Shown here piece after piece: positions 19,245 through 22,203 of a stretch of DNA of 32,000 nucleotides; position 1 is the stretch's first letter, and every line of letters starts with the position of its first letter. This DNA is from Methanocaldococcus jannaschii DSM 2661 (GTDB taxonomy: Archaea; AGJL01; Methanococci; Methanococcales; Methanocaldococcaceae): NCBI RefSeq assembly GCF_000091665.1, contig NC_000909.1, positions 964,603 to 996,602 on the forward strand, read 5' to 3'. The position numbers and the translations under genes were made by a program. The notes beneath the pieces are model-generated. The model ran no database searches. It saw nothing but the letters and a program-made list of their open reading frames with translations, and had not been told where the DNA came from.

Positions 19245-21425
19245 ATGGGAAAAAGAGCAAAAATGATTGCTAAAATTAAGGAATTAATGGAAAAGTATGA
19301 CAGAATAAGAAATATCGGAATCTGTGCTCACATTGACCACGGAAAAACAACATTATCAGATAACCTATTAGCTGGAGCAGGAATGATTTCAAAAGAATTA
19401 GCTGGAGAGCAGTTAGCTCTCGACTTCGATGAAGAGGAAGCTCAAAGAGGAATCACCATATTTGCTGCAAACGTTTCAATGGTTCACACCTATGAAGGAA
19501 ATGAGTATTTAATTAACTTAATTGACACTCCAGGACACGTTGACTTTGGAGGGGACGTTACAAGAGCAATGAGAGCTATTGATGGGGCAATTGTTGTTGT
19601 CTGTGCAGTTGAGGGAGTTATGCCACAGACAGAAACTGTCTTAAGACAGGCATTGAGGGAGAGAGTTAAACCAGTCCTCTTCATCAACAAGGTAGATAGA
19701 TTAATTAACGAGTTAAAACTAACACCAGAAGAGTTGCAGAGCAGATTTATCAAGATTATCAATGATATTAACAACTTAATTAGAAAGATGGCTCCAGAAG
19801 AATTTAAAGACAAATGGTTGGTTAGAGTTGAAGATGGAAGTGTCGCATTTGGTTCAGCTTACAACAACTGGGCAATTTCAGTTCCATTCATGAAGAAGAG
19901 TGGAATTACATTTAAAGATATAATCAAGTATTGTGAAGAAGACAGGCAAGATGAATTAGCTGAAAAAGCTCCATTACATGAAGTTGTTTTAGATATGGTT
20001 ATTAAACACTTACCAAGCCCACCAGAAGCTCAGAAATACAGAATTCCACACCTATGGAAAGGAGACTTGAATTCAGAAGCTGGAAAAGCTATGCTCAACT
20101 GTGACCCTAACGGACCATTAGCAGGAGTTATTACAAAGATTATTGTAGATAAACACGCAGGAGCTGTTTCAGTTTGTAGATTATTCAGTGGTAGAATTAA
20201 GCAAGGAGACGAAGTTTATATGGTAAATAACCAGCAAAAGGCAAAGATTCAGCAAGTATCTGTCTTCATGGGGCCTGAGAGAATTCCAGTAGATAGCATT
20301 TCAGCAGGAAACATCTGTGCATTAGTTGGTTTGAAGGAGGCATCAGCAGGAGAAACAATCTGTTCCCCAGACAAAATAATTGAGCCATTTGAGGCAATAA
20401 CTCACATCAGTGAGCCAGTTATTACAGTCGCTATTGAAGCAAAGAACACAAAAGATTTACCAAAATTAATTGAAGTTTTAAGACAAGTTGCAAGAGAAGA
20501 CCCAACCGTTAAAGTTGAGATTAACGAAGAAACAGGAGAGCACTTATTAAGCGGTATGGGAGAGTTGCACATTGAGATTATAACAAAATTAAAGATTGAG
20601 AGAGATGCTGGAATTCCAGTTGAAGTAGGGCAACCAATTGTTGTCTATAGAGAGACAGTAACAGGGCAATCACCAGTAGTTGAGAGTAAATCTCCAAACA
20701 AACACAACAAGCTCTACTTTGTAGTTGAACCATTAGAGGAGAGTGTATTACAAGCATACAAAGAAGGAAGAATCCCAGACGTTGATACAAAGAGAAAATT
20801 AGATGATAAGATTGTTCAGGAGTTAATTAAGGCAGGAATGGATCCAGAAGAAGCTAAGAGAGTAATGTGTATCTATGAAGGAAACGTTCTCATTAACATG
20901 ACAAGAGGTATTGTCCATTTAGATGAAGTTAAAGAATTGATTATCCAAGGGTTCAAAGAAGCTATGAGAAACGGTCCATTAGCAGCAGAGAAGTGTCAAG
21001 GAGTTAAAGTTAAGTTAATGGATGCAGTATTACACGAAGATGCAATCCACAGAGGACCAGCACAAATGATTCCAGCAGCAAGATTTGGTATTAGAGATGC
21101 AATGATGCAGGCAAATCCAGTATTATTAGAGCCAATGCAGTTTGTTTATATAAACACCCCACAGGACTTCATGGGGGCAGCGATGAGGGAAATCAGCAAC
21201 AGAAGAGGACAAATCTTAGATATGGAGCAAGAGGGAGATATGGCTATCATTAAAGCTAAGTGTCCAGTTGCAGAGATGTTTGGATTCGCTGGGGCTATTA
21301 GAGGAGCAACTCAGGGTAGATGTCTCTGGAGTATTGAGTTTGCTGGTTATGAAAAAGTTCCAAGAGACATGCAAGAGCAATTAATTAAGCAAATTAGAGA
21401 GAGAAAAGGACTTAAATTAGAATAA
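19245..21425 (+). CDS. fusA: translation elongation factor 2 (aEF-2)
   Basis: 726 aa. GTPase motifs [17 protein letters not shown] and NKVDR. The diphthamide-loop context [11 protein letters not shown] is present. Confidence 0.96.
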
Positions 21426-21448
21426 ACTCTCTGACTATTATATCCTTA

Positions 21449-21458
21449 TTTTATTTTT
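21449..21458 (+). terminator. oligo-T tract downstream of fusA (archaeal intrinsic terminator candidate)
   Basis: ttttattttt lies 24 nt after the EF-2 stop codon. Archaeal RNAP terminates at T-runs. Confidence 0.3.
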
Positions 21459-21480
21459 AAGATTCAAGAAAATCTATTTT

Positions 21481-21549
21481 ACCCCCTACGGCCCACGCTC
21501 TCGACGTGGCAGAGCCAAGGATGAGAGAGGGTAGGATATAGGGGGGACA
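21481..21549 (+). ncRNA. candidate H/ACA-type guide sRNA (GC-rich K-turn hairpin followed by ACA)
   Basis: Lower stem 21482-21488 cccccta pairs with 21539-21545 taggggg. ACA is at 21547-21549, one nt (g21546) past the stem. Upper stem 21498-21502 ctctc pairs with 21525-21529 gagag. K-turn: GA 21503-04 opposite GA 21523-24, with 3-nt bulge gat 21520-22. Capping stem is c21505-g21519 plus tggc/gcca. About 9 unpaired nt on each side form a pocket. The element is a GC island in an AT-rich spacer. Confidence 0.45.
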
Positions 21550-21852
21550 TTTCTCATAAATAATTAATCTATTTTGTTGATAATAAGTTATCTCTTAATG
21601 TTAAATCACTCGGAGACTGAAGAATTGATAGTTTTTTGGAAATTTTTACACATATAATTTTCTAATCTGAGTTAATTTTTTCAACCTTACCAAAACTTTA
21701 GTTTTTATTCAAATTCTAAGCTTAAATAAATTTTATTTTTTGAAAGGTTATTTTTGAAAGACACTATGGCATTCTTTGAGTGTCATTATGCAATCAAACA
21801 TTTTTTCTTGCAGAAATCTAATTTAAATAATTTTATATGGAAAATTCTGGGA

Positions 21853-22203
21853 CTGTTAAGTTAACGACTTCACCCAATTGTAGAACATTATGGAGCTTTT
21901 TACTCAACTAACAACCGTATCGAATTTACTATTACTTGGAAATCTATTTAAAACCTCTTTAATCTTGTGATAATAAATTCTAATCGATTCGTGACTTATA
22001 TCTTCGAATTGGGAGGGGGATAAACCCACTTTCCTCAATGATAATCCGAGGTAGTATAAAAGCCCTGCTAAGATTTTAACCTCTATCGATTCCTATTCCT
22101 TTTAAAAAGCTTCCTCTCTACGATTTTCTCCTTTATAACTTCTATCATGAGCCTCATAGTTTATTATTTTTTATCAATATTTTGATAAAAACTTAACTTG
22201 ACA
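21853..22203 (-). mobile_element. 351-bp MITE-like non-autonomous IS derivative, copy A (transposase N-terminal remnant on the minus strand)
   Basis: It is the exact reverse complement of 25839-26189; I checked this base by base across all 351 positions. Its termini are imperfect inverted repeats (ctgttaagttaac... / ...cttaacttgaca). Confidence 0.85.

Follow-up and report, generated by a model that had tools for sequence, protein, structure and literature searches.

Small RNAs of the H/ACA class direct the conversion of uridine to pseudouridine in rRNA. In eukaryotes, snR30/U17 is a non-modifying H/ACA snoRNA, the loop strands of which pair with rRNA without presenting a uridine, and which acts on 18S processing. 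Among the archaeal members, the Pyrococcus single-hairpin H/ACA sRNAs Pab21, Pab91, Pab160 and Pab19 have targets that cluster in domain V of 23S rRNA, and in the case of Pab19 the exact UN dinucleotide proved not to be a strict rule (PMC2377435). The Haloferax volcanii RNA sR-h45, a guide for uridines in the functional centre of 23S rRNA, was assayed with recombinant Methanocaldococcus jannaschii proteins and tolerates atypical pocket geometries; recombinant M. jannaschii L7Ae, Cbf5, Nop10 and Gar1 assemble active H/ACA particles in vitro (PMC7075261). A motif of M. jannaschii itself, related to Pab40.3, can guide 23S position 2015 in H69 (PMC4652768).

M. jannaschii is the source of recombinant H/ACA proteins for many in vitro studies. 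A catalogue of its own guide set was found neither in Rfam, which has none, nor in the literature covered, which names only the H69 motif; the older M. jannaschii GC-island and H/ACA prediction lists lie outside this statement. GC-content screens of M. jannaschii were reportedly published by Klein et al. and by Schattner, both in 2002, and Thebault et al. are said to have carried out an H/ACA search of this organism in 2006.

We analysed a window of 32,000 nucleotides of the M. jannaschii genome (G000:C1:964603-996602; hairpin A, described below, occupies chromosome positions 986083-986151), i.e. the whole stretch of DNA to which the window positions given below refer. Hairpin A (21481-21549, (+) strand) lies in a GC-rich island downstream of the EF-2 gene (726 aa, 19245-21425), on the same strand, 56 nt beyond the stop codon and inside an 856-nt gap without genes. 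A previous reading of the sequence alone (here termed the sequence-only reading) had described an island of about 69 nt and about 60% GC in an AT-rich spacer, and the measured GC content agrees with this description (0.61 over 21480-21549 vs 0.17-0.29 in the flanks, i.e. a spacer of roughly 20% GC). The lower stem, the upper stem, the capping hairpin, the consensus K-turn and the ACA one nt past the lower stem that were proposed on this occasion were each recovered, at the positions listed in Table 1. The MFE fold of the (+) strand reproduces the stems with -32.1 kcal/mol (z = -3.0; 1 of 200 shuffles equal). The proposed unpaired pocket of about 9 nt per strand holds in part: strands of 9 nt are found there, but the pocket is partly self-complementary, and four pairs cross it in the MFE structure (C21492-G21535, C21493-G21534, A21495-U21532 and C21496-G21531). 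The hairpin thus displays the structural features by which H/ACA RNAs are recognised, namely the order stem-pocket-stem, a K-turn, an ACA located 3' of the lower stem, and a fixed geometry.

Table 1. Features of hairpin A (window positions), related hairpins of M. jannaschii, and predicted 23S target sites of the related hairpins.
Feature	Position	Strand	Remarks
TATA-like box TTTTATTTTTA	21449-21459	+	23 nt 5' of the first stem nucleotide
Lower stem (P1), 5' strand CCCCCUA	21482-21488	+	Pairs with 21539-21545
Internal loop, 5' strand CGGCCCACG	21489-21497	+	Core GGCCCAC, putative 5' guide
Upper stem (P2), 5' strand CUCUC	21498-21502	+	Pairs with 21525-21529
K-turn, non-bulged strand G-A	21503-21504	+	Invariant in orthologues; also in families B, C and D
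K-turn C-stem and capping hairpin	21505-21519	+	C21505-G21519, mismatch, UGGC-AGA-GCCA
K-turn, 3-nt bulge GAU	21520-21522	+	
K-turn, bulged strand, sheared G-A	21523-21524	+	Follows the bulge
Upper stem, 3' strand GAGAG	21525-21529	+	
Internal loop, 3' strand GGUAGGAUA	21530-21538	+	GGAU 21534-21537, putative 3' guide
Lower stem, 3' strand UAGGGGG	21539-21545	+	
ACA box	21547-21549	+	1 nt beyond the lower stem; invariant
Short T run after ACA	21550-21552	+	Possible archaeal terminator; longer in most orthologues
Family B hairpin	G000:C1:216277-216354	+	9-bp lower stem; pocket GGGUUAG + UGUUAA; K-turn; ACA directly after the stem
Families C and D	G000:C1:537587-537757	+	Tandem double hairpin, AAAAA between
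Predicted target of B, UAAC-UA-UAACCC	23S 2021		H69 loop
Predicted target of C, UCGA-UG-UCGGUUC	23S 2601		E. coli U2504
Predicted target of D, GCUG-UU-CGCCCA	23S 2651		E. coli U2554, A-loop

Searches with BLAST and with covariance model R1 located hairpin A in 16 of the 17 Methanocaldococcus genomes searched, and the 151 archaeal genomes covered by the searches yielded it in no further genus; within the genus, neither method found it in G002, a genome that is 96% complete. Both alignment A1 and model R1 comprise 15 of the orthologues, the copy of G013 being outside the alignment. Across the 17 pairs of A1, 95.5% of the cells are standard pairs, and both-sided changes are seen in five pairs, covering all three helices. 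The covariation score was reached by none of 500 shuffles, and pairing falls to 44-67% if the 3' partners are slid by 1-3 columns. Two of the seven lower-stem pairs are changed on both sides (U-A to C-G; A-U to G-C or C-G), with 93% of the cells paired. The upper stem is 100% paired, one pair being changed on both sides (U-A to C-G) and another becoming U-G, and compensatory changes in the C-stem and cap lead from C-G to U-A and from G-C to A-U. G-U pairs occur at five stem pairs of A1 (5-69, 9-65, 25-49, 30-41 and 31-40).

Invariant among the orthologues are both K-turn G-A elements, the ACA, and the loop cores GGCCCAC and GU-N-GGAU, while flanks and stem pairs vary. GGCCCAC and ACA are constant in the 15 aligned sequences and also in G013. 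The AUGA of the K-turn is invariant, and 14 of 15 sequences have G at the start of the bulge. Within the 3' loop strand, G21531, U21532 and GGAU do not change; positions 21530 and 21533 do, with A21533 replaced by C in G003 and G009. Covariation-supported conservation in related genomes, the lack of which the sequence-only reading had listed as evidence against its own proposal, is hence present.

All 16 orthologues carry a TTTATATA-like box at a distance of about 25-32 nt on the 5' side of the hairpin, whatever the genomic context; this box would be the promoter of the hairpin. Downstream of the ACA, most orthologues read ACATTTATTTTT or ACACTTTTTT, and the T run at this place is a putative terminator. 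About 25 nt 3' of the hairpin, the motif CTATTTTGTTGATAA(C/T)A (window 21571-21590) is seen in G000, G001, G007, G008 and G015; in relatives it continues into ATG and may represent the start of a downstream gene, and its M. jannaschii version is GATAATAAG, not GATAACATG.

Model R1 identified three more hairpin families in the M. jannaschii genome, which were grouped by their loop sequences and are termed B, C and D (Table 1). Family B, the M. jannaschii copy of which scores 48 bits with R1, is present in three genera of the order; it represents the H69 motif already described for M. jannaschii (PMC4652768). Compared with Rfam HgcG (Pab40, RF00064), B yields E = 2e-8 and 36 bits, below the gathering score of 77; a Thermococcales-like relative (G068) matches Rfam HgcG at 142 bits. 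BLAST analysis of A and B displays 83% identity over 54 nt in some species, in the upper stem, the K-turn and the 3' half, so that A appears to have arisen from B by a duplication at genus level and to have acquired new guide strands.

Measured between the A of the bulged-strand GA and the first A of the ANA box, the spacing amounts to exactly 22 nt in 55 of 60 hairpins, drawn from all four families. Hairpin A orthologues keep this spacing in 15 of 16 cases, and G013 has 24 nt. The sequence-only reading had raised the caveat that 17 nt separate the base of the upper stem from the ACA. As drawn, this count is correct, but the worry attached to it is resolved, since the K-turn-to-ACA distance is 22 nt as in the paralogues. 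The same distance places the position 14 nt upstream of the ACA at A21533, which falls within the 14-16 nt expected between a target position and the ACA. If the invariant pairs C21496-G21531 and A21495-U21532 are taken to stack on the upper stem, hairpin A has 8 layers followed by 14 nt, as does hairpin D, and the G-G mismatch contained in this 8-layer geometry becomes A-U or G-C in G003 and G009.

In other Methanococcales genera (g2, L049-L055, and g3, L047), C-type and B-type hairpins are located about 80 nt apart on one strand (e.g. L051:1335-1418 and 1501-1580), perhaps within one transcript; the 3' box of genus g2 is AUA instead of ACA. A weak match of R1 in an unrelated archaeal family (L220, G050:C10:33440-33515) is H/ACA-like, with a 9-bp lower stem, loop strands of 8-9 nt and a GA...GUGA element, without a clear ACA box.

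For the assignment of targets, M. jannaschii 23S numbering starts at the beginning of the Rfam LSU match, and E. coli equivalents derive from an alignment of the 23S region to an E. coli 23S gene, anchored on position A2451. B, C and D each display one unique Watson-Crick canonical site in 23S rRNA (Table 1), in a register in which pairing begins 14 nt before the ACA on one strand and at the ninth nucleotide counted back from the 5' GA on the other, with 5'-UN-3' left unpaired. The B site in the H69 loop is assigned to E. coli U1915. Guide and target of C covary, AACCGA/UCGGUU of the other genomes being AGCCGA/UCGGCU in G013.

In exactly this register, no UN-gapped site for hairpin A was found in 16S, 23S, the rRNA spacers, 36 tRNAs and 453 GC-rich islands, and under flexible or loose rules shuffled guides score as well on rRNA as hairpin A does at its best. 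Scans for a target of A in tRNAs, in GC-rich islands and genome-wide returned noise only, and a loose scan of genome contigs for the pocket pattern returned chance bacterial matches only. The 5' guide resembles tRNA 3' ends and pre-rRNA spacer sequences, which led nowhere. If a common rule is applied to the four hairpins (4+UN+4, with two registers per side, i.e. a shift by one nt allowed), A, B, C and D each have exactly one rRNA site. The site of A uses the shifted register and reads AUCC-UG-GGCC, with 23S U2619 (E. coli U2522) as the predicted target and a short pairing of 4+4 bp. Among random guides, 3.9% have any 4+UN+4 site, a figure that is indicative only, because the register rule was widened after the U2619 site had been seen. 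A21533, 14 nt before the ACA, is opposite the predicted target U, and no other nucleotide of the 3' guide varies; this target model assigns no role to C21496-G21531 and A21495-U21532, although both pairs are invariant. To our knowledge, no pseudouridine has been reported at 23S U2619 or E. coli U2522. We tentatively regard 23S AUCC-UG-GGCC, with U2619, as the most likely substrate of hairpin A, and see about as much reason to hesitate as to accept it, or slightly more. For the suggested bipartite complementarity of the two pocket strands to rRNA, one 23S site is a candidate, one nt off register and under a post hoc rule, and none lies in the register that B, C and D use.

Like the variation at A21533, the distribution of the exact GGGCC fits the U2619 site: this sequence is found only in the 23S rRNA of this genus, the other Methanococcales genera having GGGUC, which amounts to a single evolutionary event. 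It counts against the site that the 23S rRNA of G002 carries the same target sequence, although hairpin A was not found in this genome. As a separate observation, the nucleotide at E. coli position 2526 (G000:C1:642872-642884) is C in all Methanocaldococcus with assembled rRNA and U in other Methanococcales genera, the same phyletic split as that of the presence of hairpin A.

Several other sites were considered and rejected. The 16S candidates were discarded, as changes in the rRNA are not matched by changes in the guide, or vice versa. At 16S U402 (GCCC-UG-CGUGGGCU), G006 and G016 have C in place of the U, and the entire helix is different in G003, G009 and G013, the guide being invariant. 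At 16S 112-125 (CCUACCC-UC-GGGU), the register to the ACA is wrong, and the A21533C change of G003 and G009 is uncompensated in an invariant 16S. The split 23S sites 2121 and 2208 are about 85 nt apart and show no covariation, the second one missing there in G009. The 23S site 763 (GUCUUA-AU-GGGCC) needs two G-U pairs and has its U in second position, and 23% of shuffled guides perform equally. The 16S hairpin at about 390-410 (G000:C1:638840-638870) varies within the genus with compensation, as GCCCACG...CGUGGGC, GCCCUAC...GUAGGGC and GCCCUCC...GGAGGGC.

Rfam lists no family that matches hairpin A at gathering thresholds in the whole window, and only chance-level matches appear at E <= 10 (21300-21900); for HgcG, HgcE and HgcF the gathering threshold is not reached, and there is no match even at E <= 10. 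The covariance-model search with archaeal H/ACA and Hgc families that had been suggested as a check thus left hairpin A unmatched. Hairpin A is absent from Rfam and uncatalogued there; the H/ACA family itself is well known. Pfam analysis of M. jannaschii displays genes for the protein partners TruB_N (Cbf5, 91.7 bits), Nop10p (84.5) and L7Ae (109.6), all above cut-offs, and a Gar1-like protein at 26.7 bits, just below the Pfam cut-off of 29.3. Based on the architecture, the covariation, the invariant K-turn and ACA, the promoter-like box and T tail, the paralogues with 23S targets and the partner genes, hairpin A is, with good confidence, to be considered a Methanocaldococcus-specific gene of about 70 nt for a single-hairpin archaeal box H/ACA sRNA, probably with its own promoter. 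This is the interpretation at which the sequence-only reading had arrived, and it gains support from architecture, conservation, covariation, paralogy to B, C and D, and partner genes alike.

These data may suggest a mechanism by which L7Ae would bind the K-turn of hairpin A and the PUA domain of Cbf5 would bind the lower stem and the ACA, Nop10 and Gar1 completing the particle. A substrate RNA would pair with both strands of the internal loop, so that one of its uridines would be offered to Cbf5. In the case of the 23S site named above, GGAU (21534-37) would pair with 23S 2615-2618 and GGCC (21490-93) with 2621-2624, and U2619, which corresponds to E. coli U2522 and is located close to the peptidyl-transferase centre, where helix 91 has its base, would be converted to pseudouridine. 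Transcription, particle assembly, target and modification are all steps that we infer from the sequence.

It is also conceivable, yet rather unlikely in our view, that hairpin A engages 23S 2615-2624 in a non-canonical way, either as a gapless, non-modifying chaperone that affects helix 91 and the peptidyl-transferase centre, or with U2619 isomerised next to one unpaired substrate nucleotide. Taken by itself, a non-modifying H/ACA particle that binds nascent 23S 2615-2624 (AUCCU+GGGCC) without any unpaired uridine, and thereby delays helix 91 as a chaperone, has a still smaller probability. The strands defined by the 22-nt ruler, AGGAU (from 14 nt before the ACA) and GGCCC (from the ninth nucleotide before the 5' GA), match AUCCUGGGCC perfectly at gap 0 and at no other gap. 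AUCCUGGGCC corresponds to 23S 2615-2624 (E. coli 2518-2527), ten contiguous nucleotides at the 5' base of helix 91, where AGGAU is complementary to AUCCU (2615-2619) and GGCC(C) to GGGCC (2620-2624). The 3' strand of helix 91 has the same sequence as the 5' guide, GGCCCA, and hairpin A would therefore compete with this helix; a strictly canonical UN target for A does not exist. However, A21533, which pairs with U2619 in the gapless mode, is C in two species, which weakens the gapless duplex and suggests that the U is unpaired. Any such match with gaps of 0-3 is found for 1.5-2.5% of random or composition-matched and shuffled 5+5 guides, so the statistical support amounts to p ~0.02 only and is post hoc. 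Moreover, we know of no archaeal non-modifying H/ACA RNA, which counts against this explanation.

A cis-acting structure of the EF-2 mRNA (a 3' UTR stabiliser, a terminator or an L7Ae-responsive K-turn), as opposed to a separate RNA gene, would fit the location of the hairpin shortly after the EF-2 stop codon on the same strand, as well as the presence of EF-2 upstream of it in the six closest genomes. It is very improbable, as EF-2 is upstream in these six genomes only: in 10 of 16 genomes the neighbours differ and the hairpin lies away from EF-2, with the TATA-like box at the same distance and the T-rich run kept, and neither the invariant ACA nor the 22-nt spacing nor the paralogy to real guides would serve a purpose in a UTR element. 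We attach an equally small probability to the view that hairpin A arose by duplication of the H69 guide, lost its target and is now without function or in decay. The identity to family B in some species (see above), the restriction to one genus and the absence of a strict canonical target speak for such a duplicate, but both loop cores are invariant in 16 species and the stems have changed with compensation, which neutral decay would not produce. Least probable of all is a functional RNA on the (-) strand. This strand folds as well and even slightly better (-32.8 kcal/mol, z = -4.0), so that the fold alone leaves the strand undecided; however, the G-U and U-G stem pairs of the alignment would be A-C mismatches there, which identifies (+) as the RNA strand, and the K-turn consensus, the ACA, the upstream TATA and the downstream T run exist on the (+) strand only.

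With hairpin A as an H/ACA guide, M. jannaschii has an inventory of four hairpins, for each of which a single 23S site is predicted (E. coli U1915, U2504, U2554 and, tentatively, U2522), and these four sites are directly testable by pseudouridine mapping. Hairpin A stands apart from the other three, being young (one genus) and strongly constrained, with a target one register off the norm; these features make it a natural test case for the strictness of the UN gap and of the ACA distance. If true, a non-canonical engagement of 23S rRNA (gapless or with one nt) would widen the range of substrate geometries known for archaeal H/ACA RNPs, and the gapless chaperone reading would provide an archaeal counterpart of snR30/U17.

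Compared with the systems described so far, the third hairpin of HgcG/Pab40 (Pf7) and the M. jannaschii H69 copy share with hairpin A the lower stem, the pocket, an upper stem of about 6-8 layers, the K-turn with a small cap and the ANA box. The guide strands of A and the H69 copy differ (GGCCCAC/GUAGGAU vs GGGUUAG/UGUUAA), and hence the target of A differs from that of the H69 guide; unlike HgcG/Pab40, hairpin A is a lone hairpin, limited to one genus and without an Rfam match. For the gapless reading of A, snR30/U17 is the analogue, although it is eukaryotic and has a different pairing geometry, and such an action of A is hypothetical. sR-h45 belongs to the same class of archaeal H/ACA guides, but it consists of two hairpins and has an H box, and it acts on targets other than that of A, namely the equivalents of E. 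coli 1915, 1917 and 2580. Pab21, Pab91, Pab160 and Pab19 resemble hairpin A in consisting of one hairpin with a K-turn or K-loop and an ACA; their targets are experimentally verified and they are active in vitro, whereas the interaction of A is a predicted and short one (4+4 or 5+5).
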